64,000 bases of DNA from Muribaculaceae bacterium (GTDB lineage Bacteria > Bacteroidota > Bacteroidia > Bacteroidales > Muribaculaceae), in NCBI GenBank assembly GCA_051871275.1, contig JBJECR010000116.1, positions 6,775 through 70,774 on the forward strand, given 5' to 3'. Of this stretch, positions 3,255 through 24,668 are shown piece after piece. Position 1 is the stretch's first letter. Every line of letters starts with the position of its first letter. Under the pieces are notes generated by a model. The model was not told the DNA's origin, ran no database searches, and worked only from the letters and a program-made list of their open reading frames with translations. A program made the translations under genes and the position numbers.

Positions 3255-3255
3255 T

Positions 3256-4926: not shown

Positions 4927-5037
4927 TCCAACTTTAGTCGAAATCTTAGTCGAAGTGTATAAACTTAAAATTGTAATATTCTGATAATCAGCTATTATAT
5001 TTCTATTATGTGTTAGTAGAACAAAATTTATTTAGTC
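4912..5037 (+). promoter_or_regulatory. Iterated TTAGTC(R)AA motifs: four phased copies plus two more upstream of the XRE gene.
   Basis: TTAGTC occurs at 4912, 4923, 4934 and 4946 (spacing 11, 11, 12 nt), and again at 5032, with a TTAGTA variant at 5013. The array spans the end of the AlbA_2 gene and the intergenic region before the XRE gene (ATG 5060). Confidence 0.45.
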
Positions 5038-5059
5038 GAACTCAAAGAAAGCGAAAGAT

Positions 5060-5347
5060 ATGTTATTCGGAGACAAAATCAGAGAACTCAGAGACGAGCA
5101 AGGTTTGTTGCAACGCCAACTGGCAGCTGCATTAGAGATTGATACCCCCATGTTCAGCAAGATTGAGCGTGGAGACAGACGAGCCAAACGAGAGCAAGTA
5201 GTCAAACTTGCAAAATTGCTGCATCAGGATGAAAACGAGATGCTGAAACTATGGCTTGCCGACAAAGTGATAGATGCAGTTGGGGATGAAAATGACCATA
5301 TTCTGAAACACGATGCCATAGAAATGGCACAAAAAACAATCTTGTAA
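5060..5347 (+). CDS. XRE-family helix-turn-helix transcriptional regulator.
   Basis: LRELRDEQGLLQRQLAAALEIDTPMFSKIERGDRRAKREQVVKLAKLL is a canonical HTH_3/Cro-C1 pattern. The gene lies 10 nt upstream of the next gene. Confidence 0.85.
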   Translation: MLFGDKIRELRDEQGLLQRQLAAALEIDTPMFSKIERGDRRAKREQVVKLAKLLHQDENEMLKLWLADKVIDAVGDENDHILKHDAIEMAQKTIL

Positions 5348-5357
5348 GACAACGATT

Positions 5358-8204
5358 ATGGATGCAGACACCCTCATGAGAAGATTGCATGAGTTGGAAG
5401 AGGAGAACAAACGGTTGAAGTCTCTTCTTTCCGAACATGGCATACCGTTTGAAGCGTATACTCATGATGGGAATCTTACTGCGTCCCAATTCTCAAACTC
5501 GACGGATTCAACCATCAGCCTTTCTTTGCAGGAAAAGGTTGAGCTGTTCCAAAGCCTATTCAAAGGGCGCGAGGATGTGTTTGCCCAAAGATGGTATAGC
5601 GATACGAGTAAGAAGTCAGGCTATCAGCCAGTATGCGAACGAGAATGGAACCGAGAGTTCTGCGACAAGCGTAAATACAAATGTTCAGAATGTCCTAACC
5701 GAAAGTTCGCTCCACTATCATACGAACATATATTCAATCACCTTGCGGGTAAGGATGCCTATGGCCGTGATGTAGTTGGCTTATATCCGCTGTTAAATGA
5801 TAATACCTGCTATTTCCTCTGTACCGATTTTGATGACAAGAGTTGTGAGCATGGGTATCAGCAAGATGTGCTTGCTTTTACAAGTGTATGCAAGGAATGG
5901 GGAGTTCCTTGCTATATAGAGCGGTCACGTTCCGGCAATGGAGCACATGTGTGGGTGTTCTTTGAGAGTGCCATCGTAGCCATAAAGGCAAGACGACTGG
6001 GAAAGTCAATTCTGTCAGAGGCTATGAATAAGGACGTGCATCTTTCCTTCAAAGCGTACGACCGGTTTTTCCCCAATCAAGACACCTTACCCGAAGGCGG
6101 AATGGGAAACCTCGTAGCCCTACCCTTACAAGGACAGGCACGAAGGAATGGAAACAGCATTTTTGTAGATGAAAGTTTCCAGCCTTATCCCGACCAATGG
6201 GTATTCCTTCTCAGTATTCAGAAAATGTCAGAGGCAACCGTTGATGCCATTCTACAAGAACACGCTTCGACATTGGGTGAATTGACAAAAAGCAGCGAGG
6301 GAAAGCCTTGGGAAACACCTAAGCCAGAGACTATTGACCAATCAGATTTCCCGACAAGTATATCATTGACAAGGGCGAATATGCTGTACGTCCCTTTGGG
6401 TTGTCTGTCGGCAAAGGCTGTCAACTATTTCAAGCGAATGGCAGCATTCCATAATCCTGAGTTTTATGCAAGGCAAGGTATGCGGCTGTCAACCCATGAT
6501 GTTCCTCGTATAATATCATGCTCAGAATTGACGGACAACTTTATAGCCCTGCCTCGTGGATGCGAGGATGATGTGGTGAATCTCCTTGAAGCAAACAATG
6601 TTGAATACTTCATAGATGACAAGACCAGCCATGGGCGAACCATTGATGTGTCATTCAAAGGTGAACTTCGTGAAGAACAACAACGAGCCATGTCCTCTAT
6701 GTTTCCTCATCCTGTAGGCACACTGTCTGCCACAACGGCTTTTGGGAAAACCGTGTTTGCTATTGCGATGATTGCTCAAAGGAAATTGAATACGTTGATA
6801 TTGGTACACAGGAAATCTCTGCTCGACCAGTGGAAAAAGCAAATGAAAGACTTTTTGGAAATAAGCGAAGTCGTAGAGGATAATTCAAAACGACGGAAGA
6901 AAAATCTTTCGCCCATAGGGGAACTATGCTCGGGAAAGGACTCTCTGCATGGAGTGATTGACATTGCCTTGATACAATCATGCTTGGAGAACAACGAGGT
7001 CAAACCTTCCGTTAGAGACTATGGCATGGTGATTGTCGATGAATGTCATCATGTCTCATCTGTGAGCTTTGAACAAGTACTGAAACAGGTAAACGCCCGT
7101 TATGTTTATGGACTTACAGCTACTCCTATACGCAAGGACGGACATCAGCCCATCATCTTTATGCAATGTGGAAAGATACGATATACTGCAGATGCTAAAA
7201 GTCAGATGGACAGACAGAACTTTGTCCGTACCCTAATACCGCGTTTCACATCTTTCCGTAATGTTTTGCCCGACAACAAAACATATACTCAAACCATAGA
7301 GGCTTTATCGACAGACGATGTGAGAAACAAGCTCATCATAGAGGATGTGAAAAAGGAAATTGCAGAAGGACGGACTCCCATTATCCTTACCAATTTGACA
7401 TCCCACGTGAGGATTCTTACGGATTTGTTGCTGCCTCATGCAATGCATGTAGTCAGTCTTGTCGGTGCAGACTCTGCGAAAGAGAAGAGGATTGCAATGG
7501 AAAAATTGGAGAACATTCCCGCATCCGATACGTTAGTCATAGTTGCCACAGGCAAATACATCGGTGAAGGTTTCGACTATTCTAGACTTGACTCGCTGTT
7601 TCTTGCGCTACCCATTTCATGGAAAGGGAATATAGCCCAATATGCAGGCAGATTGCATCGGGATTATGAGGGAAAGAATGAAGTGCGCATCTTTGACTAT
7701 GTTGACATACGCATTCCCCTCTGCGATTCCATGTATAGAAAGCGATTGAGAGGGTACGCATCTGTGGGTTATGGTGTCACGAAGCCAACAGAAGGAAACA
7801 GCGTTTCAAAGCGAGAATTGATTTACGATGGTCAGACTTTTTCAGAACCATTCCGTCAAGACCTGCTTACAGCCAAACATAGCATAGTCATCTCCTGTCA
7901 GAAGATAAAGTTCAATTATGCACCTCGATTACTATATCTTTTACGAGACCTTATGACCAATGGTATTGAAGTTGTTATTTGGGTCAAGGAACAAGGCATT
8001 AGCGAAAATGAATTACGGAATAATGGCATAGAAGTACAATGCGACGAAACTCTGTCAGTGCAATGTGCGATAATTGATAAATCCACAGTCTGGTACGGTA
8101 GCATCAACTTCTTTGGTTACAACACAGAAGAGAACAACGTGATACGAATCGCTGACTCATTCATAGCCAATGAACTGCTGGATATTATATATGGACAGTG
8201 TTAA
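5358..8204 (+). CDS. Fusion protein: coiled coil, archaeo-eukaryotic primase (AEP/Prim-Pol) domain, SF2 DExH helicase, and a degenerate PLD-like C-terminal domain.
   Basis: AEP motifs: FLCTDFDD (motif I), SRSGNGAHVWVFF (motif II), YDRFFPNQD..GNLVALPLQG (motif III region). Helicase motifs: ATTAFGKT (Walker A), IVDECHHV (DExH), GLTATP, GEGFDY, QYAGRLHR. C-terminus: SVQCAIIDKSTVWYGSIN fits HxKxxxxDxxxxxxGSxN with H->S and K->Q (nt 8055-8108). From memory, similar N-terminal domains are labelled 'TOTE conflict system AEP domain'; this is not verified here. Confidence 0.8.
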   Translation: MDADTLMRRLHELEEENKRLKSLLSEHGIPFEAYTHDGNLTASQFSNSTDSTISLSLQEKVELFQSLFKGREDVFAQRWYSDTSKKSGYQPVCEREWNREFCDKRKYKCSECPNRKFAPLSYEHIFNHLAGKDAYGRDVVGLYPLLNDNTCYFLCTDFDDKSCEHGYQQDVLAFTSVCKEWGVPCYIERSRSGNGAHVWVFFESAIVAIKARRLGKSILSEAMNKDVHLSFKAYDRFFPNQDTLPEGGMGNLVALPLQGQARRNGNSIFVDESFQPYPDQWVFLLSIQKMSEATVDAILQEHASTLGELTKSSEGKPWETPKPETIDQSDFPTSISLTRANMLYVPLGCLSAKAVNYFKRMAAFHNPEFYARQGMRLSTHDVPRIISCSELTDNFIALPRGCEDDVVNLLEANNVEYFIDDKTSHGRTIDVSFKGELREEQQRAMSSMFPHPVGTLSATTAFGKTVFAIAMIAQRKLNTLILVHRKSLLDQWKKQMKDFLEISEVVEDNSKRRKKNLSPIGELCSGKDSLHGVIDIALIQSCLENNEVKPSVRDYGMVIVDECHHVSSVSFEQVLKQVNARYVYGLTATPIRKDGHQPIIFMQCGKIRYTADAKSQMDRQNFVRTLIPRFTSFRNVLPDNKTYTQTIEALSTDDVRNKLIIEDVKKEIAEGRTPIILTNLTSHVRILTDLLLPHAMHVVSLVGADSAKEKRIAMEKLENIPASDTLVIVATGKYIGEGFDYSRLDSLFLALPISWKGNIAQYAGRLHRDYEGKNEVRIFDYVDIRIPLCDSMYRKRLRGYASVGYGVTKPTEGNSVSKRELIYDGQTFSEPFRQDLLTAKHSIVISCQKIKFNYAPRLLYLLRDLMTNGIEVVIWVKEQGISENELRNNGIEVQCDETLSVQCAIIDKSTVWYGSINFFGYNTEENNVIRIADSFIANELLDIIYGQC

Positions 8205-8839: not shown

Positions 8840-9640
8840 CTAAAACCACTCCTCTTTCATTCTCTTAAGAAACTCCTTCGTGATAGGATACCCGGAGGCA
8901 TCTCCGAGCACGGCATCGGTGTGGCAATATGGGCAACATGCGGTTGCCTCTCCATTCTTTTCTGTATAGAATGTTGCTTCATTCGCTGAAAAGGTTTTCA
9001 GGCACGAAAAACAACCACATACTTTTGAATTGAGGACTGACTCCTTATTTTTGAATGAGGCTTGATGTGCTTTTTCTAAGTATTGGTATTCGGTAGTGAA
9101 CTTATAGCATATCCGTTTCACCGCCTCCTCGGATACATGATGTCCACCGGGTATGAAGTAGAAACAACCTATCTCATCACCGTATATATCTTGATATCTG
9201 TCACCTAACAATTCATCATCCGCTGCAAAGTATGCTGTAATTCGCTGCTTATCCGCATCATTTATCTGTTTGAGCTGAGGTTCAAAGGCTGCATAAGTGG
9301 CAACCATCTCCGGTGACGGTGCAGGCAGTCCGTTATGTGGACCTAACTTAGGCAACTCCACGGATGGAGAATAGCAAGGGTTGATGACAATACGCTGAAT
9401 GCCTGTTGTCAACAGCGTCAGGAAACCACCGAGCGAAGAGCCGACAACAAGGTCAATGTGTTCACTCTCAATAGTTTCTCGTATTTGTTTCAGGGCTGTA
9501 GCACAGTCTTCTTGACAATAGTCCATCCCTATAACCTGCCATTCTTCTGCGGGCATATACTTCCTGAACAGGCGGCAACTGCCACCTTCCGGAGAGCCGT
9601 TATAACCATGAATATAGAGTAACTTTTTCATAAGGGTCAT
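8840..9640 (-). CDS. YqiA/UPF0227-like alpha/beta hydrolase fused to a C-terminal 4-Cys zinc-ribbon-like domain.
   Basis: LLYIHGYNGSPEG at the N-terminus, nucleophile elbow VVGSSLGGF, and late GGHH. The C-terminal ~65 aa contain CGCFSC ... CCPYCHTD ... EEWF. Confidence 0.7.
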   Translation of the reverse strand: MTLMKKLLYIHGYNGSPEGGSCRLFRKYMPAEEWQVIGMDYCQEDCATALKQIRETIESEHIDLVVGSSLGGFLTLLTTGIQRIVINPCYSPSVELPKLGPHNGLPAPSPEMVATYAAFEPQLKQINDADKQRITAYFAADDELLGDRYQDIYGDEIGCFYFIPGGHHVSEEAVKRICYKFTTEYQYLEKAHQASFKNKESVLNSKVCGCFSCLKTFSANEATFYTEKNGEATACCPYCHTDAVLGDASGYPITKEFLKRMKEEWF

Positions 9641-9796: not shown

Positions 9797-11299
9797 TTAA
9801 TACTGACGTATGCGAACACGTGCAAATATGTCTTTGCTGTGTTCGTTAATATGATTAAGAAGGCGTTCGAAATCGGCTTTACGCCACATCTTGGCAATCA
9901 TTGCTACGCCGTTCTTTTCCGAACCATTCCACACAAGACCATATCCTAATCCGGAATCGTCATCTATGGTTGATTTATGTACAATCGGGTACAAATCCCA
10001 AGGAGCATCTTTTATCTCCACGCTGAAACCGGACTCGGTAACTGCATTAACTTCATCCGTAGAATGCCAGATAAGACTGTCATACGATTTCGTGGTGCGG
10101 TTGTAATAAGAGTTGATGGTAGTCGGGAATGCTGCTCGAACTTCTTCAAGCGTTTTTCCGGGATTGAGTTTCATCCACTGCATAAAGAATACTGCAGCAG
10201 CCTTGCTTTTCGACAACGGTTTTGCATATTCGGGTATTGGTTGCCAATCTGCTCCATCGCCATTCTCATCTATCTCAACCATATACTTGACGGTATCTCT
10301 TCTGCTTTTCTTGAATACATCCATCAACTCCGACTCGTTACCGGGTGCAATTTTAGACTTGCAAACATAAAGGATGGTGTTGAACAGCGAGATATTGTAG
10401 TCCCAAAAGTTTTGCAGCAATTCTGCGGCTTCCGTATCCTCTACCAATGTGCCGATAATCTTCTCTGCCTTATCGCCTCCGACTACCGTTATGGCTGCAT
10501 CAATCAATGGCTTATAGTTATCGTATAGGGTGTTGATATCATCACGACACTCTTTCAAAATTGCCATAATCGTATTGACAAGTTTCATCGGGTCTTTCTC
10601 TTCATCCGCAGATTTGGTAGCAGGTGTGCCAAGTGTATTGATATAAGCATTTACCAAGCTCTTTGCATCGTTAGGCATAGCATACGACGTCAGAGGCTCA
10701 ATCACATTGTCCAAAAGTTGCTGATAAGTAATATTTGTAAAATCGCTGCAAGAAGGTGCGGTCTCGTCAGGAGTTAGAAAAATCTCTACTGAAAAATCGG
10801 TATGCTCAATTTTATTGAATGCCTCCACTGCTTTATGATATCTCACGGTTTGCTCTTCGCCCTCACCGGAATATATCTTGTTTTCAACAGCCAGAGGAAT
10901 CCTGTAACGATTTCCATCATTGTCGATTACCCATACGTGCATCCAAATGTCTATGCGGTCCTTTTCGTTCGTACCGGATATATCACGTAAGAGTTTTTCA
11001 GTGGTACATTCATCTACTTCAATCGAATAATTGCCGCTAAGCAGAAGAGCGTCCAAATCAGTTCTTTTAGAAGCAACATGGGTGTATAGAGCCAATAGCT
11101 TCTTAATCGGTTCGACACCTAAAGCATGATCGGATTGAGGATCCAAAAGCCAGCAAAGAAATGCACTGTGACGATTCTCATTTCGCTCAACCTTTAAAAC
11201 ATTAAACACATTTTTCTTAGAATAGTATGCTGACATTTTTTGGAACTTACTATCATTCTGCATTGATAATAAGTACGTTTTTACTTCTTTATTATTCAT
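9797..11299 (-). CDS. PD-(D/E)XK nuclease-superfamily protein (PDDEXK_4-like N-terminal half) with a C-terminal half of unknown function.
   Basis: FNVLKVERNENRHSAFLCWLLDPQSDHALG ... DRIDIWMHVW ... IPLAVENKIYSGEGEEQTVRY gives the D ... E-x-K arrangement and the HSxFLxWLLxP signature of that family. The start lies 39 nt downstream of the preceding gene on the same strand. Confidence 0.6.
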   Translation of the reverse strand: MNNKEVKTYLLSMQNDSKFQKMSAYYSKKNVFNVLKVERNENRHSAFLCWLLDPQSDHALGVEPIKKLLALYTHVASKRTDLDALLLSGNYSIEVDECTTEKLLRDISGTNEKDRIDIWMHVWVIDNDGNRYRIPLAVENKIYSGEGEEQTVRYHKAVEAFNKIEHTDFSVEIFLTPDETAPSCSDFTNITYQQLLDNVIEPLTSYAMPNDAKSLVNAYINTLGTPATKSADEEKDPMKLVNTIMAILKECRDDINTLYDNYKPLIDAAITVVGGDKAEKIIGTLVEDTEAAELLQNFWDYNISLFNTILYVCKSKIAPGNESELMDVFKKSRRDTVKYMVEIDENGDGADWQPIPEYAKPLSKSKAAAVFFMQWMKLNPGKTLEEVRAAFPTTINSYYNRTTKSYDSLIWHSTDEVNAVTESGFSVEIKDAPWDLYPIVHKSTIDDDSGLGYGLVWNGSEKNGVAMIAKMWRKADFERLLNHINEHSKDIFARVRIRQY

Positions 11300-11338: not shown

Positions 11339-12982
11339 TTATACAAGATTCTCTATTTCTTTTGTTTTGAGGTTATAATATTCTTCCAACGATATAGATT
11401 TTTGCAAATCACGAAGAGTTTTATCCTTACCATCCGGTAATAAAGTTCTTAATGTAATTCTATTAAAGAATGACTCACATATGGTAACAATATAGTCGGT
11501 TCTCCATTCGCGTCCTTGCAACTTATAACCTACGACGTAGTCATCGAAAAGATTTAAGTGTTCAGGATAAATGAATGTGCATTGCGATTCATCATTATAT
11601 GCCGGGCACAGTTTCTCGGCGTCAAACGATTGAACATCTTTTGCAAACCAATGTTGTACACCGGGACAGTCCGTATGACAAAGAGAGTTAGGCATGATGA
11701 TTAATTTATCACGTAGGTTTGTAAAGCTTTTTAGTATGTTCAACGAACGCGTAAATGGATAGAACATTACAATATAGTCATAATAAGTGAAATCCATCTT
11801 CCGAATGTCTTTACAGAGCCGCTGAACAATACTTGAAATAACTAACAAATTCGGATTATACTCTTTTATAATTTTTGCATTTTTGTCATTAGCAATAATA
11901 AAGCCACAAGCTCCTAATTTGGTATAGTAGTCTAAAAGTTCTTTTGATATTACGCTATCCCTATCTTGCCATAGGACGACAAATCTCAGATTTCCGGATT
12001 TTATTAAATGCATATGGTATTCATATTCCTCACGCGACTGAGGCATATATGAACGACCTTTCATCTTGCTTTGCAAGTATGTCCTCGTATTGAAAGTATC
12101 ATCCTTGTAAGGAGGGAGAAATAGGAAATTAATGAAGCCGGAATATTTCTCATAATAAGGAAGAATTTCTTCATCAAAATTATATGGAACTTCAAACTTC
12201 TTTATTTTCAAGGACCGAGCGTCAGATGTAGTTAATGAATTCGTTTCAATTGCAACTCCATTGCATACGTCTAATAGCGTGCGTGTTATTTGTGAGACAA
12301 AATCGAACGGGCAACTAAACGTAGTACATTTATCTTGTCGGTACACAGTATAAGCATAAGAAAACAAATAGACAACCGGAATATCAAGTATTTGACCAAT
12401 ATATTTCACAATAGGTTCGGATGTTACAATAGCCTTTATTCGGCTACGGTTCTTTATTATTTCATCGATTTCTATCAATTCTCTGAAATCATAAGCACCT
12501 TCCAACAAAACCTCTCTCTTTGTACCACAACACACAGGGGAGAGACCGTTGTCGCATAAATTCGCAACAACTTGTTTTAGATATGAAGAGATGAAGAATT
12601 CTCTTTCGTTTAAATAATAGCAAAAAAGAACAACTTTTTCTTTTGTAGCAAGTTGCTCGTCAATTTCATTCTTTTCTCTGACAAAGCCAAGATATGGGTG
12701 AAAGATGCCCTCATGTTGAACATTTAGAATGTTAGCAGTTTTCTCACACAGAATCCGGAATGGTGCATAATCCGGCAAATCCAAAACGAGCACACTATCT
12801 TCTTCTTTTTCCTTAGGATGACCAATATTCACATTTTCAAGTTTGCCGAGATATTTCGAAGCGATGTCTGTCCTAACAACATTATAGCATTCTTTGGACA
12901 CATTTACGACTGTTGCCACAGCTGCAGCTTTAATCTCATCGTACCCTGAGTTTGTTTTTTTGATATATATCCAATTTTTCAT
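11339..12982 (-). CDS. Two-domain Cys-rich protein of unknown function, the last gene of the RiPP-like operon. The C-terminal half is possibly U32-like (TIM-barrel).
   Basis: 547-aa ORF starting 6 nt after the rSAM stop. Cys pairs are SPVCCGTK and CTTFSCPFD, and a C-terminal cluster reads LCHTDCPGVQHW-x-KLCPAYNDESQCTF (C-x3-C-x19-C-x8-C). The alternating beta/alpha-like pattern (RFVVLWQ, GFIIANDKNAKIIKEYNPNLLVISS, YIVMFYP) only loosely recalls the peptidase-U32 / UbiU-UbiV family. The function call is weak. Confidence 0.55.
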   Translation of the reverse strand: MKNWIYIKKTNSGYDEIKAAAVATVVNVSKECYNVVRTDIASKYLGKLENVNIGHPKEKEEDSVLVLDLPDYAPFRILCEKTANILNVQHEGIFHPYLGFVREKNEIDEQLATKEKVVLFCYYLNEREFFISSYLKQVVANLCDNGLSPVCCGTKREVLLEGAYDFRELIEIDEIIKNRSRIKAIVTSEPIVKYIGQILDIPVVYLFSYAYTVYRQDKCTTFSCPFDFVSQITRTLLDVCNGVAIETNSLTTSDARSLKIKKFEVPYNFDEEILPYYEKYSGFINFLFLPPYKDDTFNTRTYLQSKMKGRSYMPQSREEYEYHMHLIKSGNLRFVVLWQDRDSVISKELLDYYTKLGACGFIIANDKNAKIIKEYNPNLLVISSIVQRLCKDIRKMDFTYYDYIVMFYPFTRSLNILKSFTNLRDKLIIMPNSLCHTDCPGVQHWFAKDVQSFDAEKLCPAYNDESQCTFIYPEHLNLFDDYVVGYKLQGREWRTDYIVTICESFFNRITLRTLLPDGKDKTLRDLQKSISLEEYYNLKTKEIENLV

Positions 12983-12988
12983 ATCTTC

Positions 12989-13987
12989 CTATAGTCTAAA
13001 GTGTCCTTCTTCATGAAAGTGACTTAGTGTATGCGCCAAACAACCTCCTGAACATAACTCCATCTCAAAATTTTTACAAGTATCGCATTGTTGATATACG
13101 CCTTTAATCTCTTTGCGGTAGTTCTCCTGTATCATATTGAAATATGAATATAACTCTTCATACGTTTGAAAATCTTTTAATGATTTTCTATTAATATTAG
13201 ACAATGGGAAACAAGACCAACAAGTGAGATCCGGGCCAATATCGATTGTAGGACCGCAATCAAATGATAATGCATTTCTCGTGTACTTATACAACAAGCC
13301 TATTTCTTCGTCGGTAAACATGCACATGGGGAATCCGCAGTCAAGTCCCGGATGAATTTTCAAGTCGTACATTTTTCTTAGTCCATCCATCAATTTAATC
13401 TTAGCTTGTTTAAAGTCGGCGGGGGCAATGTACTCATTCTGAGAATCCGGAATCGGATTCGCAATTCCAAATCGGACATGTCTTCTTAATCCATATTTTA
13501 AGATATAGTCCTCCAGAAAATCAATATTAAAATCTAACCTATAGATGTTGAAACTAAGTGCACACAAGCTACCTAAAGACCTAAGAAATTTATGTACTTT
13601 CAAAAGTTCACTTTGGGAAGAAAGGAGCGGTTCGTTGACATTAACAACGAATTTAAGTTTGTTACTTTCCTTTATGGACTCCGCTTGCATTCTTTTTACG
13701 AAAGGCTCCAACTTATTGGAGGGCATAATTCCACTAGTAAAAATGCAGACCTCAAAACCTCTGTCTAATATCAAATATTCGATTATTTCTGCTACGCGAG
13801 GGTGAATCAGAGGTTCTCCACCTAACAATGAAATGCGGCTAATTCCTGATTTTTCCAAGAAATTCACAACATATACAAGATTTTCTTTTGGTATAGCACT
13901 CCGATCTTCAACGCCTTCCATATATTGTTTTGCAAAACAGTAAGGACATTTTCTAACACAAACTTCAGTCAACAACAAATTTGCCAT
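12989..13987 (-). CDS. Radical SAM enzyme with a C-terminal SPASM/twitch-like Cys-rich domain.
   Basis: CVRKCPYC is the CX3CX2C motif at aa 10-17. GGEPL is the SAM-binding motif. C-terminal cysteines: CGFPMC, CWSC, CDTCKNFEMELCSGGC. Confidence 0.9.
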   Translation of the reverse strand: MANLLLTEVCVRKCPYCFAKQYMEGVEDRSAIPKENLVYVVNFLEKSGISRISLLGGEPLIHPRVAEIIEYLILDRGFEVCIFTSGIMPSNKLEPFVKRMQAESIKESNKLKFVVNVNEPLLSSQSELLKVHKFLRSLGSLCALSFNIYRLDFNIDFLEDYILKYGLRRHVRFGIANPIPDSQNEYIAPADFKQAKIKLMDGLRKMYDLKIHPGLDCGFPMCMFTDEEIGLLYKYTRNALSFDCGPTIDIGPDLTCWSCFPLSNINRKSLKDFQTYEELYSYFNMIQENYRKEIKGVYQQCDTCKNFEMELCSGGCLAHTLSHFHEEGHFRL

Positions 13988-14006: not shown

Positions 14007-14558
14007 TTACACACTTATTGTTCTCACACTATTCACAAAAATCGATTTCTCGTATTTAAGCTTATCTAAAGATTTATAAATAGTAGTTCTATCTCTAGCT
14101 ACTTCTTTAAAGCAGAGGCTTTCTTGAAATTTATCAGCACGCCGATTGTTTATACTACAAGTTGTTTTAAGAGCATATTTATAAAGCAGAATAAAGTCTA
14201 ATAAAGTCACTAAGGAGCGAAAAATCTCCTTAAAATATTTTCTATCATGGTCCCAAGTACCACCGTGAAAAATCACTTCTCCTCTTTTGTGAAAATTTTC
14301 TTCTAAATATACCATTCCTCTTGGAGTGTTCGTTGCCCTGTCACACCACACGAGTATAACGACATTTGCACAAGTAGATATATCTTTCAAGTCACCCTCC
14401 ACCATACCGGGGAAAATTTTTTGCCAATCGTCGTTAGTATACTTTGAAACAATATCCTCTTCTTGGGGATTATACCATCTAAAATACATTTTATCAACAG
14501 GATTACTGTACTCCCGGAAATGTTCTTCAAATAGAGATTTGAGTCCTTTTGTCTTCAT
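14007..14558 (-). CDS. GNAT-fold-like protein, a putative N-acetyltransferase.
   Basis: 183 aa. The pattern MVYLEENFHKRGEVIFHGG ... FKEIFRSLVTLLDFIL ... LKTTCSINNRRADKFQESLCFKEV resembles GNAT beta4-alpha3-beta5-alpha4 (the N..A..fyeklGF-type ending). The assignment comes from pattern only. Confidence 0.45.
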   Translation of the reverse strand: MKTKGLKSLFEEHFREYSNPVDKMYFRWYNPQEEDIVSKYTNDDWQKIFPGMVEGDLKDISTCANVVILVWCDRATNTPRGMVYLEENFHKRGEVIFHGGTWDHDRKYFKEIFRSLVTLLDFILLYKYALKTTCSINNRRADKFQESLCFKEVARDRTTIYKSLDKLKYEKSIFVNSVRTISV

Positions 14559-14566
14559 TCACCTTA

Positions 14567-15568
14567 TTACATAACAGGAAGACAATTGCAAAGGCAATCA
14601 ACCATTGCCTCACTCATAGGAATTTTGCATAAGTCTTCAATCCAACCCCATTGTCCATTCGGATTGCACTCAAGAAAAACATACTCGTCTTCAGGAGTCA
14701 AGATAAAATCAAAACAGCCAAAGTTGAGATTGAGTCGAGATAGGTATTTTTTGCAGAATTCAGCAATAATGTCCGGAGTTGGTATTATCTCGTGTTTTAG
14801 TCCGTGATCATATCCTTGACGCCAATCTATCGAACCCGTCATTTCAGTTTGTCTCTGCGAGTCCAACATACACGTAAATATATGTGGTCCCATAACAGTA
14901 ACTCTCAATTCATATTTTTTCTCCACATACTGCTGTGCAAAGACTACCGTTTGTGAAAATGCCTCTTGTGGTTGATTCATCAACTGTTTAGAAGGAATTT
15001 TTTGTGTACACAAATCAAACACCTTCTCGTCTGCAGTTTTCATCCAGTGATTACGGAGACACTTTAAGCTTATATTGTCAAAGTCTCTGGAAAAGTTTAC
15101 GATATCAGTTTTCGAGTTAGAAATACAGGTAGGGGCAATTTTCATTCCTAACTCTACTGCAATTTTCGATTGAATCATTTTAGAATTTGCTCTCTTGTCA
15201 TACAGATGATGCCCAATAGAATAAATATCTGTGAGATAATGCATCAAATACAAAAAGAACTGTTTACTTTCCACTATGTTATGCCTGTCGACTTCTTCGT
15301 TAATAGTATATGGAAGATATTTAGGGAAGTCCGGTTTTCTATACCATACCGACTTTATCTCATGCCCCCAAATAATAGCATTTGTGGAACGGTCTTTGAT
15401 ATAAAAATCGGGTGTCTCGCCATTATTATGAAACCAAGCAAAAGTATAATCCACCATCAAAGCCTCAGTATTCAACCTAAAGAAAGGAATGTTGTCTCTT
15501 TTCATTAAATTGATTACTGAGGTCGGGTGAAAATCACTTTTATCTGTGAGAATTAGGATTTTCCTCAT
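14567..15568 (-). CDS. ATP-grasp peptide macrocyclase of the MdnC/MvdD (graspetide ligase) type.
   Basis: Colinear with microviridin ligases as I recall them: ILILTDKSD..FFRLNTE (cf. VLIVTFSRD..FRFDTD), SVWYRKP (cf. AVWYRR), ELRVTVMGPHIF (cf. ELRITIVGEQIF), IDWRQ, and LNFGCFDFILTPEDEYVFLECNPNGQWGWIE (cf. LNYGAIDMIVTPDERYIFLEINPVGEFFWLE). Confidence 0.9.
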   Translation of the reverse strand: MRKILILTDKSDFHPTSVINLMKRDNIPFFRLNTEALMVDYTFAWFHNNGETPDFYIKDRSTNAIIWGHEIKSVWYRKPDFPKYLPYTINEEVDRHNIVESKQFFLYLMHYLTDIYSIGHHLYDKRANSKMIQSKIAVELGMKIAPTCISNSKTDIVNFSRDFDNISLKCLRNHWMKTADEKVFDLCTQKIPSKQLMNQPQEAFSQTVVFAQQYVEKKYELRVTVMGPHIFTCMLDSQRQTEMTGSIDWRQGYDHGLKHEIIPTPDIIAEFCKKYLSRLNLNFGCFDFILTPEDEYVFLECNPNGQWGWIEDLCKIPMSEAMVDCLCNCLPVM

Positions 15569-15644: not shown

Positions 15645-15878
15645 TTAATCGTCTGTCCAATGTTCTGCATCGTTATGCTCATAGTAACCGCCACCGTTTT
15701 TTTCCTTAGTACTTTTGTACCCATCATAACTCCGAGAACCTGAAGAACTACCACCTCCCATTAAGAAAGTTATCTGTTCTTTGGGATCATACACAATCTG
15801 CATCTCTCTATCCGAAATCACCTGCGGTTCTTCGGGAACCATAAAGTTGGCAATCAAAGGATTTACTGTTATTCTCAT
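15645..15878 (-). CDS. Putative graspetide-type precursor peptide (77 aa).
   Basis: MRITVNPLIANFMVPEE... contains P-L-I-A-N-F-M, resembling the microviridin leader motif PFFARFL. A Gly/Ser linker (GGGSSSGS) follows. The C-terminal stretch SYDGYKSTKEKNGGGYYEHNDAEHWTDD is rich in Ser/Thr/Lys donors and Asp/Glu acceptors. There is no Cys. It lies 76 nt upstream of the ATP-grasp gene on the same strand. Confidence 0.65.
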   Translation of the reverse strand: MRITVNPLIANFMVPEEPQVISDREMQIVYDPKEQITFLMGGGSSSGSRSYDGYKSTKEKNGGGYYEHNDAEHWTDD

Positions 15879-15944: not shown

Positions 15945-16193
15945 TTATTTTTTTAAATAACTTTCAATTTCATCAACAGATATTTCCCCTCCAATCCAGT
16001 CCTTAGTAGCATGTGAAGAATCTATGCTTATTTTTCTTGATTTAAGTCCTTCTCCATTGTAATCAATTGTAACTCGACAAGAATTGAAAAGATCAATTAT
16101 CAATTTACCATCACCTTCTTCTGATTTTGAAATATTGCGGATAATACATAACGCAACATCTATATCTGTCAATTTAATCTTCATATTTTTCAC
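15945..16193 (-). CDS. Small hypothetical protein (82 aa, or 79 aa from the ATG at 16184).
   Basis: ORF-track entry with no signal peptide and no recognisable motifs. It directly abuts the upstream 68-aa ORF. Confidence 0.45.
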   Translation of the reverse strand: MKNMKIKLTDIDVALCIIRNISKSEEGDGKLIIDLFNSCRVTIDYNGEGLKSRKISIDSSHATKDWIGGEISVDEIESYLKK

Positions 16194-16400
16194 CTAACCT
16201 TTTATTTCCTTCACAATCCAATTACCGGGTGATGCCCAACTATCGGCACGAACTGTGAAATCGGCACGATGAAGTGCTTCTTTAACCTCACTTATATCAG
16301 GTGCAAAACCTGTTCTTGATGATACAACTTGTAATATGAACCCCTTTGGGATACTTGCATCCACAAAGTCTCTTGGGGATTGAAGTAAGAAAGTTTTCAT
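16194..16400 (-). CDS. Small hypothetical protein (68 aa).
   Basis: ORF-track entry. It vaguely resembles small Bacteroidota-specific DUF proteins (IPKGFILQVVSS...SPGNWIVKEI). The family is not established. Confidence 0.45.
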   Translation of the reverse strand: MKTFLLQSPRDFVDASIPKGFILQVVSSRTGFAPDISEVKEALHRADFTVRADSWASPGNWIVKEIKG

Positions 16401-16442: not shown

Positions 16443-16673
16443 TTATTTAAATACTATCACACGAGCTATGCCGTCATGAAAACCGTATGCATCATCAAAA
16501 CGTGGCTCTATAATCCGGAATCCGGTCTTATCTATATAGCCATATTTACCGCCTATTTCTACTGCGGCAACATCTTCCCTGAAATCGCCTGCATAGTCAA
16601 ATTGCGGCTCCGCAATCCAGGTTCCGGTCTTGTCTATATAGCCATATTTAGGTTCACCTTTTTCCGGTTTCAT
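16443..16673 (-). CDS. Two-repeat WG-repeat mini-protein (76 aa), or a detached remnant of the upstream repeat gene.
   Basis: KYGYIDKTGTWIAEPQFDYAGDFREDVAAVEIGGKYGYIDKTGFRIIEPRFDDAYGFHDGIARV gives two more units of the same 34-aa repeat. The ATG lies 18 nt after the stop of the 1027-aa gene. Confidence 0.5.
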   Translation of the reverse strand: MKPEKGEPKYGYIDKTGTWIAEPQFDYAGDFREDVAAVEIGGKYGYIDKTGFRIIEPRFDDAYGFHDGIARVIVFK

Positions 16674-16690
16674 ATTTGAATGTTCAATTT

Positions 16691-19600
16691 TTACAATTTG
16701 CCTTTTACAGAAGCAACGCCGTCACTAAAATTGTATGCTTCAATAAATTTAGGTTCTGCAATCCAAGCACCGGTCTTGTCTATAAAGCCATATTTCCTGC
16801 CGATTCTTACCTTAGCTATGCCGTTTACAAAACTGAACGCATCATCAAATTGAGGTTCTATAATAACAGTTCCCGTCTTGTCTATATAGCCCCATTTACC
16901 GTCAATTTTTACTTCGGCAATGCCGTCTTCAAAACTTCTTACAAAATCAAATTGCGGCTCTGCAATCCAGGCTCCGGTCTTGTCAATTAAGCCATATTTA
17001 CCGCCTATTTCTACTGCGGCAACACCTTCCCTAAAATCGCGTGCATCATCAAATTGCGGCTCTGCAATCCAGGTTCCGGTCTTGTCTATATAGCCATATT
17101 TTCCGTCAATTTTTACATAGGCAATGCCATCAACGAAATCTCCTGCTTCTTCAAATTTTTGCTTTACAATAAATGCTCCTGTTTTATCAATATAGCAATA
17201 TTTTTTGCCAACTTCTACTAAGGCTATGCCGTCTTTGAAATCGTAGACAAACTTAAATTTCGGCTTCGCAATCCACGCTCCTGTCTTATCTATAAAACCC
17301 CATTTACGGTCAATTATTGCAGAGGCAATGCCATCAACGAAATTTCCGACATAATCATATTTCGGCTCTATAATCCAGGCTCCAGTCTTGTTTATATAGC
17401 CCCATTTACCGTCAATTTTTGCTTTTGCTATGCCGTCTTCAAAATTCTCTGCTTTTTCAAATTGCGACTCTATAATCCATGCTCCCGTCTTGTCTATATA
17501 GCCCCATTTACCGTCAATTTTTGCTCTGGCTATGCCGTCTTCAAAATTCTCTGCTTTTTCAAATTGCGACTCTATAACCCATGCTCCCGTCTTGTCTATA
17601 TAGCCATACTTACCGCCAATTTTTACATAGGTAATGCCGTCTTCAAAGTGCCATGCATCATCAAATTGAGGTTCTATAATCCAGGCTCCGGTCTTGTCTA
17701 TATAACCATATTTATCGCCAATTTGAACCGGGGCTATGCCGTCTTCAAAAGACCATACTTTATCAAATTTCGGATCTATAACCCAGGCACCGGTCTTGTC
17801 AATTAAGCCATATTTACCGCCTATTTCTACTGCGGCAACACCTTCCCTAAAATCGCCTGCATCATCAAATTGCGGATCTGCAATCCAGGTTCCGGTCTTG
17901 TCTATATAGCCCCATTTAGCGTCAATTTTCGCTTTGGCTACGCCGTCTTTAAAACTATCTACATCATCAAATTTCGGCTCTATAACCCACGCTCCCGTCT
18001 TATCTATATAGCCATCTTTCCAGTTGATTTGTGCTCGGGCAATGCCGTCTTCAAAACTTCTTACAGAATCAAATTGCGGCTCTGCAATCCAGGCTCCGGT
18101 CTTGTCAATTAAGCCATATTTATCGCCAATTCTTACTTTGCCAAAACCATCTCTAAAATCTTCTGCACCATCAAATTGAGGTTCTATAACCCACGCTCCG
18201 GTCTTGTCTATATAGCCCCATGTACCGTCAATTTTCGCTTTGGCTACGCCGTCTTTAAAATCGCCTACATCATCGAATTTCGGCTCTATAACCCAGGCTC
18301 CGGTCTTATATATATAGCCATCTTTCCAGTTGATTCTTGCTTTGGCAATGCCGTCTTTAAAATGGAATGCATAATCAAATTGCGGCTCTATAACCCATGC
18401 TCCGGTCTTGTCTATATAGCCCCATTTACCATCAATTTCCACTTTTGCAATGCCGTCTTCAAAGTGCCATGCATCATCAAATTGAGGTTCTATAATCCAG
18501 GCTCCGGTCTTGTCTATATAACCATATTTACCGCCAATTTTTACATAGGTAATGCCGTCTTGAAAATCTTCTGCATCATCAAATTGCGGCTCTATGATCC
18601 ATGCTGCGGTTTTGTCTATATAACCCCATTTATCGTCAATTTCTGCTGCGGCTATGTCATCTTTAAAACGCCATACATCATCAAATTGCGGATCTATAAC
18701 CCAGGCTCCCGTATTGTTTATATAGCCACATTTACCCTCAATTTTTGCTTTTGCTATGCCGTCAAGAAAATCTTGTGCTTCGTCAAATTGCGGCTCCGCA
18801 ATCCATGCACCGGTCTTGTCTATATAGCCCCATTCACCATCAATTTCTACCCTGGCAATGCCGTCTTTAAAATCTTCTGCTTCATCAAATTGCGGCTCTG
18901 CAATCCATGCTCCGGTCTTGTCTATATAGCCCCATTTACCATCAATTTCCACTTTTGCAATGCCGTCTTCAAAGTGCCATGCATCATCAAATTGAGGTTC
19001 TATAATCCAGGCTCCGGTCTTGTCTATATAACCATATTTACCGCCAATTTTTACACTGGCAATGTCATCGCAAAATTCTTTTGCTTCATCAAATTGCGGC
19101 TCTATAACCCATGCTCCGGTCTTGTCTATATAGCCCCATTCACCATCAATTTCTACCCTGGCAATGCCGTCTTTAAAATCTTCTGCTTCATCAAATTGCG
19201 GCTCTATAATCCATGCTCCCGTCTTATCTATATAGCCACATTTAGGTACTCTCTTTTCTTCGTTATCCTCATCTTCGTCGTCATAAACAGACCAAATCTG
19301 TTCTTCATCTATTTCTCTTGAGTCCATAGGGTAGCAGTCTGTATAGGCTACTCCATCATAGACAAAAGCAATAAGCATTGGCTCGTCAATGTCGTTAGGA
19401 TATATAAAATCGCGGCACATAAGATGAGCCTTTTTTGGATCAAATTCTTCATCCTCCGGTATCTCGATATTAAAATTACAGGAAGACTTGTTGATATGGC
19501 AAATACCTGTGTCCGCTTCGACATTTTCAAAAAATTCCGCAGCAACAACTTCTCCCATTCCTTCAAATTCTTCATTACCATAGTCTCCTTCATCAAAATC

Positions 19601-19774
19601 TTCAGGAGTATATCGCTTGTCATCAATTATAAAAACAAGGTCTTCTTCCGCAGAGAATCGGGAAATACCATCAATTAAATCGCCTGCCCCATCTTGAGCA
19701 TAAAGTTCTTTCTCAATTCCAAAAATGCTGACCGATACTGATTTCTTAGCCTTTTCGCCTTTTTTTGTTTTCAT
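16691..19774 (-). CDS. WG-containing-repeat (KWG/WG_beta_rep) protein: a ~175-aa acidic non-repeat N-terminal domain plus 25 tandem 34-aa repeats.
   Basis: I counted 25 consecutive units of G(Y/L/F)IDKTGAW(I/V)IEPQFD.A..F.DGIA.V.I.GKW, each exactly 34 aa. The N-terminus MKTKKGEKAKKSVSVSIFGIEKEL... has no signal-peptide-like hydrophobic segment or lipobox. Confidence 0.85.
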   Translation of the reverse strand: MKTKKGEKAKKSVSVSIFGIEKELYAQDGAGDLIDGISRFSAEEDLVFIIDDKRYTPEDFDEGDYGNEEFEGMGEVVAAEFFENVEADTGICHINKSSCNFNIEIPEDEEFDPKKAHLMCRDFIYPNDIDEPMLIAFVYDGVAYTDCYPMDSREIDEEQIWSVYDDEDEDNEEKRVPKCGYIDKTGAWIIEPQFDEAEDFKDGIARVEIDGEWGYIDKTGAWVIEPQFDEAKEFCDDIASVKIGGKYGYIDKTGAWIIEPQFDDAWHFEDGIAKVEIDGKWGYIDKTGAWIAEPQFDEAEDFKDGIARVEIDGEWGYIDKTGAWIAEPQFDEAQDFLDGIAKAKIEGKCGYINNTGAWVIDPQFDDVWRFKDDIAAAEIDDKWGYIDKTAAWIIEPQFDDAEDFQDGITYVKIGGKYGYIDKTGAWIIEPQFDDAWHFEDGIAKVEIDGKWGYIDKTGAWVIEPQFDYAFHFKDGIAKARINWKDGYIYKTGAWVIEPKFDDVGDFKDGVAKAKIDGTWGYIDKTGAWVIEPQFDGAEDFRDGFGKVRIGDKYGLIDKTGAWIAEPQFDSVRSFEDGIARAQINWKDGYIDKTGAWVIEPKFDDVDSFKDGVAKAKIDAKWGYIDKTGTWIADPQFDDAGDFREGVAAVEIGGKYGLIDKTGAWVIDPKFDKVWSFEDGIAPVQIGDKYGYIDKTGAWIIEPQFDDAWHFEDGITYVKIGGKYGYIDKTGAWVIESQFEKAENFEDGIARAKIDGKWGYIDKTGAWIIESQFEKAENFEDGIAKAKIDGKWGYINKTGAWIIEPKYDYVGNFVDGIASAIIDRKWGFIDKTGAWIAKPKFKFVYDFKDGIALVEVGKKYCYIDKTGAFIVKQKFEEAGDFVDGIAYVKIDGKYGYIDKTGTWIAEPQFDDARDFREGVAAVEIGGKYGLIDKTGAWIAEPQFDFVRSFEDGIAEVKIDGKWGYIDKTGTVIIEPQFDDAFSFVNGIAKVRIGRKYGFIDKTGAWIAEPKFIEAYNFSDGVASVKGKL
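16694..19246 (-). repeat. 102-bp tandem coding repeat array (25 units) inside the WG-repeat gene.
   Basis: The periodicity is seen at both the DNA and protein level. Units 3 and 8 are identical at the protein level. Units 1/4 and 17/18 differ by 1-2 residues. Unit 16 is a mosaic of the head of units 3/8 and the tail of unit 7. Confidence 0.9.
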
Positions 19775-23384: not shown

Positions 23385-24668
23385 TCAGTCTTTCAAACAC
23401 CCTACAGGGATAACATAAACGCCATCTTTCCTGCAATACGCATAGCTTCCCACAGCAACAATAACAGCCATAAATGACGGACTTTGCATTTTTTCCGTGT
23501 CAATATTGCCGGCAAGTGATTTCAGGTTTGCCGCTCCTTCATTGATGTTTTCTTCTCCACCAAGTTTCACTTCTATAAGTGCATAACTTCCATTTCTTCT
23601 ATGCAGCACGCAGTCACATTCCAATCCGGAACTATCTCTATAGTGATAAAGCTCACCATCCAGGGCTTCCGAATATACACGCAAATCTCGCACCACCAAA
23701 TCTTCAAAAAAGAATCCAAAAGATTTTAAGTCGTTTATCAAATCATTCGGACCAAGACCTAAAATTGCCGTTCCGATGCTCGGATCCACAAAATGCCTTG
23801 TATCACTCGTTCTTATTGCGGATTTACTCCTTATATTAGGATTCCAAGCGGGAAGGTCTTCAATAACGAAAAGCTTTTTAAATGCATTCACATATTCCGC
23901 AACCGTGTCTTCATCCAGTGTATTGGAATCATTGGAAAGCATATCTTTTCGTATGGTTGTGAATGGTACCTGCTGAGAAATGTTTCGTGCGTATGACCGC
24001 AAAAGGAGTTTTGCACGTTCCGGATTTCTCTTTACTTTGCCAACTCTAACTATATCACGTTGCACAACGGAATCAACATAATCAACAGCCTGGTCCAATG
24101 CAACATCTTTTGGTATCATAGTTGACCAAGGCCAACCTCCTCTACATACCAAATATGCTATATCATTTATATCCAAGTCATTCTTTTGAATATTAAACGG
24201 CTGCCCGTCAAACAAATCTTTCAAACTGACAGAACCTGCAGATTCTCCGGATTCATATAAACTCATAGTACGCATTTTTATAGTTGCATACCTACCTGTC
24301 CCACTATGAACAGTTTCTTCCGCAGACGGCAATACGGAAGACCCGGTAAGAATAAATTGTGACGGTTCTCCTAGAGAATCCACCTCACTTCTGATAGAAT
24401 CCCAAATAGGTGGCAGTGCTTGCCATTCGTCTATCAATCTGGGTGTTTCACCGGACAAAAGCATTTTAGGACTTATTTCTATCATTTGTTCGCTTTGCCG
24501 CAACACTGCTGAATCACCCAAGTCCAAAACGCTTTTTGCTATTTGCTTGGCAGTGGTGGTCTTTCCGCACCATTTAGGACCTTCTATAAGAACTGCACCT
24601 TTACCACGTATTTTTCGTGCTAAAATGCCGTCTGCTATTCTATGTTTATAATTCGTCATCATCTTCAT
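23385..24668 (-). CDS. AAA-family ATPase (AAA_14 plus DUF4143-type architecture).
   Basis: Walker A GPKWCGKTT, Walker B-like PRLIDEWQ, and a C-terminal PD-(D/E)XK-like region (ECDCVL ... ALIEVKLG) typical of DUF4143 proteins. Confidence 0.85.
   Translation of the reverse strand: MKMMTNYKHRIADGILARKIRGKGAVLIEGPKWCGKTTTAKQIAKSVLDLGDSAVLRQSEQMIEISPKMLLSGETPRLIDEWQALPPIWDSIRSEVDSLGEPSQFILTGSSVLPSAEETVHSGTGRYATIKMRTMSLYESGESAGSVSLKDLFDGQPFNIQKNDLDINDIAYLVCRGGWPWSTMIPKDVALDQAVDYVDSVVQRDIVRVGKVKRNPERAKLLLRSYARNISQQVPFTTIRKDMLSNDSNTLDEDTVAEYVNAFKKLFVIEDLPAWNPNIRSKSAIRTSDTRHFVDPSIGTAILGLGPNDLINDLKSFGFFFEDLVVRDLRVYSEALDGELYHYRDSSGLECDCVLHRRNGSYALIEVKLGGEENINEGAANLKSLAGNIDTEKMQSPSFMAVIVAVGSYAYCRKDGVYVIPVGCLKD

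Follow-up and report, generated by a model that had tools for sequence, protein, structure and literature searches.

What does the short open reading frame (ORF) at positions 15645..15878 of a stretch of Muribaculaceae DNA encode, and which enzymes act on its product? The stretch, called the window below, comprises 64,000 nucleotides of contig JBJECR010000116.1, and a reading made from its letters alone had proposed a precursor peptide with a microviridin-like leader and a core of a new class. The graspetides, constrained peptides, form a class that is growing fast, and many of them are potent protease inhibitors. About 11 of the 24 predicted graspetide groups had a characterized member as of 2022 (PMC9576775). 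The comparison of related loci indicates that the ORF very probably encodes the precursor of a graspetide, its leader being of the PFFARFL type and its core unlike that of microviridins, with the rings and the function of the peptide predicted from sequence. An MvdD/MdnC-type ligase gene is adjacent, a graspetide-type leader element is present, and donors and acceptors of predicted macrocycles are conserved. On the minus strand, the genes for the precursor, the ATP-grasp ligase, p183 (183 aa), a radical S-adenosylmethionine (SAM)/SPASM enzyme and p547 (547 aa) follow each other with gaps of 76, 8, 19 and 6 nt. As judged across related genomes, the first three of these genes form a conserved co-directional module. 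Additionally, the comparison yielded a second leader motif (YDPKxQ), a GNAT-like gene, p547, a very large Bacteroidales-wide family and a facultative radical SAM pair, none of which had been part of the sequence-only reading.

The precursor gene and its conservation

The precursor gene is encoded by the minus strand (15878→15645), a point that had been left unstated, and runs from an ATG start through 77 codons to a stop. Its position and translation, MRITVNPLIANFMVPEEPQVISDREMQIVYDPKEQITFLMGGGSSSGSRSYDGYKSTKEKNGGGYYEHNDAEHWTDD (77 aa), agree exactly with those given before, and the whole peptide is free of Cys, as had been said of the core; it consists of a leader, a GG hinge and a core. Five close protein homologues were found by a word-indexed protein search and were aligned with the window's precursor. 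It can be seen that NPLIxNFMVP, EM..YDPKxQITFLMGG and SRSxDG are invariant across all 6 sequences, and that NDAE[RH]WTDD is conserved in the 5 of full length.

The species genomes of GTDB were searched with an alignment of the ATP-grasp ligase, giving 572 confirmed matches to relatives of the ligase, and 80 loci were fetched (numbered with the prefix L). A small co-directional ORF is present immediately 5' of the ligase gene in nearly all of them. In 68 of the 80 loci, across Bacteroidales families, a homologue of the precursor directly precedes the homologous ATP-grasp gene, and 68 upstream small ORFs, the window's included, fall into one BLASTP single-linkage cluster and can be aligned end to end. 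Pairwise ratios of nonsynonymous to synonymous substitution (dN/dS) were 0.10-0.47 for pairs with an estimable dS; between L001 and L091, dN was 0.115 and dS 0.98. As measured by these ratios, the small ORF is under purifying selection. The synteny in 68 of 80 loci, the shared motifs and the dN/dS below 1 therefore indicate that the precursor ORF is more than a chance frame. The check named in the earlier reading, an alignment of homologous small ORFs beside orthologous ATP-grasp genes, thus came out in its favor, and the leader and core that it had named are the conserved parts.

A six-frame motif scan revealed no second precursor in the window, the sole other match being a chance one within a WG-repeat protein, and no second conserved small ORF was found in the related loci compared. 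A scan for an operon promoter and terminator gave counts not above those of shuffled sequence. Two abutting ORFs of 68 aa and 82 aa (15945..16400, minus) lie between the fragment of the WG-repeat protein and the precursor, the second with a GTG start right after the stop of the first; they had no family match and no conservation in the related loci. In L094 (about 850..1200), a precursor homologue is split into two frames by frameshifts and is not followed by the radical SAM and p547 genes, which represents a decaying copy or an assembly error.

Motifs were counted over 72 distinct precursors of the family. The first leader element, N6-PLIANFMVP-15 (15834..15863, minus), is invariant in the close homologues and is predicted to be the helix recognized by the ligase. 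Its motif P-h-h-x-x-[FYCL] (PLIANF in the window, P7-F12) occurs in 71 of the 72 precursors, and PLIANF fits the general graspetide leader signature 'Phhx(1,2)h', which was derived from PFFARFL (PMC8939145). Both observations support a leader of the PFFARFL type, as had been proposed from the resemblance of P-L-I-A-N-F-M to that element, with recognition by the ligase as the prediction. The second element, Y30-DPKEQITFLM-40 (15759..15791, minus), carries the family motif Y[DN]xxx[QEH], which occurs in 70 of 72 precursors; actinobacterial precursors show a comparable element, YxYDxxxQ. The hinge G41-G42-G43 (15750..15758, minus) is a possible double-glycine leader cleavage site. The GG hinge is invariant within the window's branch but is no feature of the family as a whole, being found in only 10 of 72 precursors.

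The core region, delimited by alignment of the branch precursors, comprises residues 44-77 (15648..15749, minus). After MGG(G), the branch consensus reads [ST]48-R-S50-x-D52-G-Y54-K55-x-T57 ... Y65 ... N69-D-A-E72-[RH]-[WY]74-T75-D76-D77-COOH, with conserved donors [ST]48, S50, K55, T57 and T75 and conserved acceptors D52, D70, E72, D76 and D77. Conservation across the whole family is seen for [ST]48 at the core start, T57 about 9 residues on, and the terminal D76-D77, and all 72 precursors have an Asp-Asp pair within their last 12 residues. The position of S50 holds Cys in many relatives, and that of K55 holds Arg or His in some, which makes either residue an unlikely donor for the family as a whole. 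The earlier claim that donors and acceptors are concentrated in the core is thus matched by conserved hydroxyl and Lys positions and a C-terminal acidic cluster. The residue counts offered for the last 28 residues (S50-D77) were correct for three Lys, two His and one Trp, but there are four Tyr (Y51, Y54, Y65, Y66) and not three, and seven acidic residues (D52, E59, E67, D70, E72, D76, D77) and not five; the hydroxyl residues are S50, S56, T57 and T75. The classic microviridin core TxKxPSDx(E/D)(E/D) is indeed lacking, both in the 77-aa precursor and in all aligned relatives.

Almost all of the 80 examined loci belong to Bacteroidales from animal guts and rumen. In the large family, the ligases are 40-50% identical to that of the window, the core is RTVGT[RK][SC]LK..T.K......D.KNEIDD[QS]K.VK, and the usual arrangement is a bare two-gene module; these main-clade modules occupy many different neighborhoods. 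The window's branch is characterized by ligases at least about 52% identical, the MGG(G) hinge and a C-terminus of [DE]R[WY]TDD or PVMTDD. A conserved acidic protein of about 140-170 aa (cluster c3, e.g. MDNTKFTKQFVALTMATLRADG...) is encoded directly 5' of the precursor (at about 7240-7730) in 16 main-clade loci (L012, L013, L020, L022, L024, L025, L027, L029, L040, L041, L046, L056, L058, L060, L061 and L063), and may be an extra partner of the module.

The ligase and its downstream partners

The ATP-grasp peptide ligase gene (14567..15568, minus) begins 76 nt after the precursor gene and encodes 333 aa of the graspetide maturase type, the only such ligase of the cassette. The protein scores 34.1 against a cut-off of 27 with PF21068 (MvdD pre-ATP-grasp domain) and aligns over its full length with PDB entries 5ig8 (6e-31), 7m4s (AMdnB), 7mgv (CdnC, 1.8e-24) and 5ig9 (1.4e-23). 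Entries 5ig8 and 5ig9 are both deposited as 'ATP grasp ligase', and presumably they are the microviridin ligases MdnB and MdnC. By these matches, the gene next to the precursor encodes an MvdD/MdnC-type ATP-grasp ligase for a peptide made on the ribosome and modified after translation (RiPP), in agreement with the earlier supposition of an ATP-grasp gene nearby. A total of 1243 ligase homologues were found. The NCBIfam scores were 184.9 for TIGR04187 (cut-off 350), 160.9 for TIGR04185 (425), 142.6 for TIGR04184 (475) and 108.8 for TIGR04192 (230). The full-length maturase matches, together with scores far under all of these cut-offs, imply that the ligase represents a separate clade of graspetide maturases.

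The p183 gene (14007..14558, minus) starts 8 nt after the ligase gene, and its homologues follow the ligase in every branch locus with downstream sequence available. No direct Pfam or NCBIfam family match was obtained for p183, and a first small profile matched nothing in PDB or Pfam. With a wider profile, built from 40 relatives from an exhaustive HMMER search, the top PDB matches were GNAT acyltransferases (E 0.011-0.4), namely FdhC 5kta (E 0.011), 4m85, YjaB 2kcw, 2eui and MJ1062 3eo4. Also, nine weak GNAT Pfam matches occurred among remote relatives, the best at 6.8e-4, and an hhalign comparison with YhbS was not significant. The matches suggest that p183 is probably a divergent acyltransferase of the GNAT fold, which would make it the counterpart of MdnD in microviridin clusters. 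That p183 belongs to the lipoproteins grouped as cluster 23 by Makarova et al. is unlikely, the N-terminus being unlike a signal peptide or lipobox by eye. Proteins of 180-205 aa encoded downstream of main-clade ligases (cluster c2) were also considered as p183 homologues, and alignment showed them to be unrelated, membrane-protein-like sequences.

The radical SAM/SPASM gene (12989..13987, minus; 332 aa), 19 nt after p183, scores 54.4 against a cut-off of 29.5 with PF04055, and its product has a SPASM-type C-terminal domain and no N-terminal RiPP recognition element (RRE). The Cys positions C10-x3-C14-x2-C17, C244-x6-G251-x4-C256-x2-C259 and C301-x2-C304-x7-C312-x3-C316 are invariant in 7 homologues. 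Compared with the reference pattern CX3CX2C + CX9-15GX4C ... CX2CX5CX3C ... C, a spacing of x7 is seen here in place of x5. The protein has the sequence features of a radical SAM/SPASM peptide maturase, with cluster binding predicted, and reaches no curated NCBIfam model. SPASM enzymes are typically peptide maturases (PMC8939145).

The last gene of the cassette (11339..12982, minus), 6 nt after that of the radical SAM enzyme, encodes p547, a protein of two modules with no sequence match in Pfam, NCBIfam or PDB. Only 41 homologues were found in 5.8 billion clusters, and all are at least 42% identical except the weakest, a short match to a 400-aa AAA-ATPase; a protein from a Muribaculaceae metagenome-assembled genome is 100% identical. 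An AlphaFold2 (AF2) model from a 28-sequence alignment reached a predicted local distance difference test score (pLDDT) of 86.9 and a predicted TM-score (pTM) of 0.88. Foldseek comparison returned GT-B family-9 heptosyltransferases, TibC (a protein O-heptosyltransferase) and WaaF, at E 4e-6 over about 240 columns, as well as TIM barrels such as TrpA at a target TM-score of 0.48-0.50. By these matches and the secondary-structure map of the model, p547 appears to have a GT-B-like double-Rossmann module at the N-terminus (1-245) and a (beta/alpha)8 barrel at the C-terminus, joined by a disordered linker (249-258), and we infer which match belongs to which half. Residues C435, H436, C439, H444, C459 and H475 of the barrel are invariant and C502 is nearly so, which suggests a metal or Fe-S site. 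A U32-peptidase-like barrel of the UbiU/UbiV Fe-S type was considered for p547 and rejected, since PF01136 reached only 0.068 in one member and hhalign against E. coli UbiU/UbiV was negative. In L095, the gene directly after that of the radical SAM enzyme encodes a separate protein of 224 aa that is homologous to residues 1-229 of p547. This suggests that the N-terminal module is the constant partner of the radical SAM enzyme and that p547 is a fusion.

The full five-gene cassette is present in the window and in L001-L003, L087/88, L089, L090 and L091, and all 4 contexts looked up through p547 contain the same cassette. The four-gene locus L095 carries the N-terminal module as a separate protein, and in L093 the contig ends within the radical SAM gene. 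Three-gene versions (precursor, ligase and p183) without the radical SAM and p547 genes exist in L081/L082, L083/84, L085/86 and L005. As compared across these loci, the pair is facultative in the branch.

Proposed maturation and alternative explanations

In the proposed mechanism, the leader (residues 1 to about 43) would dock on the ligase through PLIANFMVP, as PFFARFL does in microviridin, with a probable contribution of the YDPKxQITFLM element to recognition. The ligase would then activate side-chain carboxylates in the acidic cluster at the C-terminus, namely those of D76 and D77, with E72, D70 and D52 as possible extras, and join them as omega-esters to the hydroxyl donors [ST]48 and T57, possibly S50 and T75, and perhaps as an omega-amide to K55. 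The family-wide invariants, two Thr/Ser and two Asp, point to a hairpin-like bicycle closed by two or more omega-esters between Thr/Ser and Asp, to which K55, T75, D52, D70 and E72 may add rings specific to the branch. Like MdnD, by analogy, the GNAT-like p183 may add an acyl group to the product. Factors encoded elsewhere would remove the leader at the GG hinge and export the peptide. Also by analogy, the peptide would serve to inhibit proteases or would act in conflicts between microbes or with phages.

The window's branch would receive a further modification from the radical SAM/SPASM enzyme acting with p547. The earlier suggestion that the aromatic residues of the core are crosslink sites of a radical SAM enzyme remains plausible for part of them. 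Two aromatic positions are retained in every locus bearing the enzyme, Y65 and [YW]54, the latter with [KR]55 next to it (L095 reads TTSQRGWRNT...YHDYNDAPVMTDD), and [YW]54-[KR]55 and Y65 are thus the best candidates. The position of W74, in contrast, is Met in L095, which bears the enzyme, and the same core exists in L081/L082, which lacks it. A previously undescribed hybrid RiPP, in which the ligase laces the peptide and the SPASM enzyme with p547 then modifies G-[YW]-[KR]-x-T or Y65, is therefore put forward only tentatively, at somewhat less than even chances. If it is true, gut Muribaculaceae and Prevotellaceae have a pair of enzymes that is new, and the crosslink or anaerobic tailoring reaction may be new as well.

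Several observations weigh against the graspetide assignment or against parts of it. The ligase is under every curated NCBIfam cut-off. The precursor matches no precursor model, and TIGR04186 did no better than E = 0.1, a value obtained for a main-clade relative alone. The GNAT signals of p183 are all below curated significance thresholds and its single-sequence AF2 model reached a pLDDT of only 46, and the fold matches of p547 are weak overall (TM 0.26-0.5). The cassette encodes no peptidase or exporter, and therefore GG cleavage and export must be supplied in trans; unlinked double-glycine peptidases and ABC exporters are common for graspetides (PMC8939145). In L081/L082, the ligase is 84% identical and the core TRSFDGYKATRKRLSGCCYSTDNDAERWTDD is near-identical with the same NDAERWTDD end, yet the radical SAM and p547 genes are missing. 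This suggests that the pair was lost or never gained while the peptide stayed unchanged, that it is dispensable for retention of the precursor, and that it may act only optionally. Also, the ring positions, the radical SAM product and the acylation are predictions.

The surroundings of the cassette resemble a conflict island, with helicase-PIN, Schlafen/AlbA_2, AEP-TOTE, YqiA-like esterase and PDDEXK_4 genes on one side, and genes for WG-repeat proteins, SecDF and an AAA_14/DUF4143 ATPase on the other. The plus-strand run of conflict-system genes at 909..8204, which is defense-island-like, comprises a helicase (AAA_11/12) fused to PIN_4 (909-3254), a Schlafen/AlbA_2 protein (3256-4926) and a fusion of an AEP-TOTE primase with a ResIII/DEAD helicase (5358-8204). 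On the minus strand follow a 266-aa YqiA/UPF0227-like alpha/beta-hydrolase with a Cys-rich C-terminal extension (CGCFSC...CCPYC; 8840..9640), which lies at the end of the run of genes on this strand and does not accompany the cassette in other loci, and a 500-aa PD-(D/E)XK_4 protein (9797..11299) directly 3' of p547, which matches the PADLOC single-gene defense candidate PDC-S26 (E 1.6e-31). Related PDDEXK_4 genes lie beside the module in L001, L002, L005, L015, L078 and L087/88. Just upstream of the cassette, a 1027-aa protein with about 25 WG_beta_rep repeats and a 76-aa fragment with the same repeats are encoded (16443..19774, minus). An LRR_5 and WG_beta_rep protein is found immediately 5' of the precursor in L089 (415..2175), and a Ser/Thr-kinase gene upstream in L093, L095 and L096, with LRR_5 repeats in L095 and L096. 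The AAA_14/DUF4143 ATPase gene is located at 23385..24668 (minus), and such genes lie within a few kb of the module in the unrelated genomes L085 (three copies), L087, L091, L093 and L094.

It could be argued that the ORF is a graspetide precursor and that the radical SAM/SPASM enzyme and p547 constitute a separate module, which acts on some other substrate or belongs to a small-molecule pathway. The three-gene versions, with the almost identical core of L081/L082, would be in keeping with such an arrangement, as would the lack of Cys, the commonest target of radical SAM/SPASM enzymes, in the core, the missing RRE domain, and the fact that viperin and MoaA models score best for the N-terminal half of the enzyme. 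These matches are, however, restricted to the generic radical SAM core (residues 2-92), and the SPASM cysteine pattern is intact. Moreover, the radical SAM gene and p547 (or its N-terminal module) are seen only in the cassette, on the same strand and with gaps of 6-20 nt or overlaps, and these loci have no second small conserved ORF. A separate module is therefore regarded as unlikely, and joint action on the graspetide precursor is the arrangement followed here. Less probable still, and improbable on the whole, is that the small protein is an intracellular component of conflict or defense, the modified peptide acting in the cell, for example as an inhibitor of a protease or phage protein or as a signaling switch. 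Such a role would agree with a cassette without exporter or leader peptidase, with its conflict-island location in the window, and with the recurrence of PDDEXK_4 and AAA_14/DUF4143 genes beside the module in other genomes. Against it, the cassette proteins have no match among the PADLOC models apart from generic radical SAM-viperin similarity, the main-clade modules are spread over many different neighborhoods, and peptidases and exporters are commonly unlinked in graspetide systems (PMC8939145). Viral contigs of IMG/VR hold only relatives of 23-28% identity, which speaks against this role and also led to rejection of a phage origin.

A further possibility is that the ORF is a chance or non-functional frame and that the ATP-grasp enzyme has another substrate, for example in C-terminal glutamylation of the RimK kind. 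The GC content is 0.36 at the cassette against about 0.45 in the flanks, and low GC makes spurious ORFs more frequent; the precursor matches no Pfam or NCBIfam model, and the ligase has a weak similarity to the RimK family (29 bits). Across Bacteroidales families, however, 68 of 80 loci agree in the position, length and motifs of the ORF, dN/dS is well under 1, and the ligase has an MvdD-type pre-ATP-grasp domain and not the RimK architecture. A chance frame is thus already contradicted by the comparative data and is hardly credible, and the ORF is treated below as a graspetide precursor.

Comparison with known graspetide systems

No description of this Bacteroidales family was found in the literature searched. 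The supplement of Makarova et al. 2022 (PMC8939145) consists of 187 files, including alignments of 174 precursor clusters, and in the portion of it that was covered 11 of 12 signature strings (NEIDD, PLLMNF, PLLMG, MPLLM, PPIMNF, IDDQK, IDDSK, WTDD, ERWTD, ERYTD, NFMVP and PLIANF) are absent, which is good but not absolute evidence. The remaining string, PLLMG, occurs there once, in an unrelated Streptomyces precursor, and Muribaculaceae, Alistipes, Duncaniella, Odoribacter and Paludibacter are not named in the same portion. The new core class suggested previously is upheld to the extent of this comparison, which concerned the clusters of that study only. With its compact set of five genes, the branch of the window is a target for the discovery of new peptide chemistry in strict anaerobes, and the recurrent conflict-island placement raises the testable question of what such peptides do in gut communities.

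Compared with microviridin clusters (MdnA, MdnB/MdnC, the GNAT MdnD and the transporter MdnE), the system is alike in having a small precursor directly 5' of an MvdD/MdnC-type ligase, a Pro-hydrophobic-hydrophobic-x-x-aromatic leader element, a core rich in Thr/Ser/Lys and Asp/Glu, and a probable GNAT gene downstream. The differences are a single ligase in place of two, with TIGR04184 and TIGR04185 scores far under their cut-offs, a core without TxKxPSDx(E/D)(E/D) that ends at the C-terminus with TDD, the lack of an ABC transporter, a second leader motif (YDxxxQ), and the added radical SAM/SPASM enzyme and p547. The SAV_5884-type graspetides or graspimiditides (TIGR04187, TIGR04186, TIGR04188) share other features with it. 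TIGR04187 is the best NCBIfam model of the ligase, the precursors likewise have a two-part leader with a P-h-h element followed by YxYDxxxQ, and hydroxyl donors precede a cluster of Asp at the C-terminus, an arrangement that points to ester rings of stem-loop topology. However, the ligase reaches only about half of the cut-off of 350, the operon has no O-methyltransferase or aspartimide step, the host is a member of Bacteroidales and not of Actinomycetota, and the window's precursor has no TIGR04186 match.

The grasp-with-spasm systems (TIGR04192 + TIGR04193; Branch 5) are similar in their Bacteroidota host and in the combination of a ligase and a radical SAM/SPASM enzyme in one operon, with one peptide as the predicted target. 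The precursors of Branch 5 often contain Cys, their leaders are of the form MKKL...GG and lack the Phh motif, and their partners are of the LPL family and cluster 23 (PMC8939145). The system of the window, in contrast, has a Phh leader, a Cys-free core and GNAT-like and p547 partners; TIGR04192 scores 108.8 against 230, and TIGR04193 is not among the best 25 models of the radical SAM enzyme, which extend to E 0.0025. Chryseoviridin, whose microviridin-type cores are arranged in multi-core precursors, is made by another graspetide system of Bacteroidota, in Chryseobacterium, and its ligase CdnC is homologous over the full length (7mgv, 1.8e-24), whereas the precursor here has a single, unrelated core. 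As judged by ligase scores, core motifs and gene content, the system is neither microviridin, nor SAV_5884/graspimiditide, nor grasp-with-spasm, and the family offers a defined substrate-enzyme pair for the study of leader recognition outside the microviridins.

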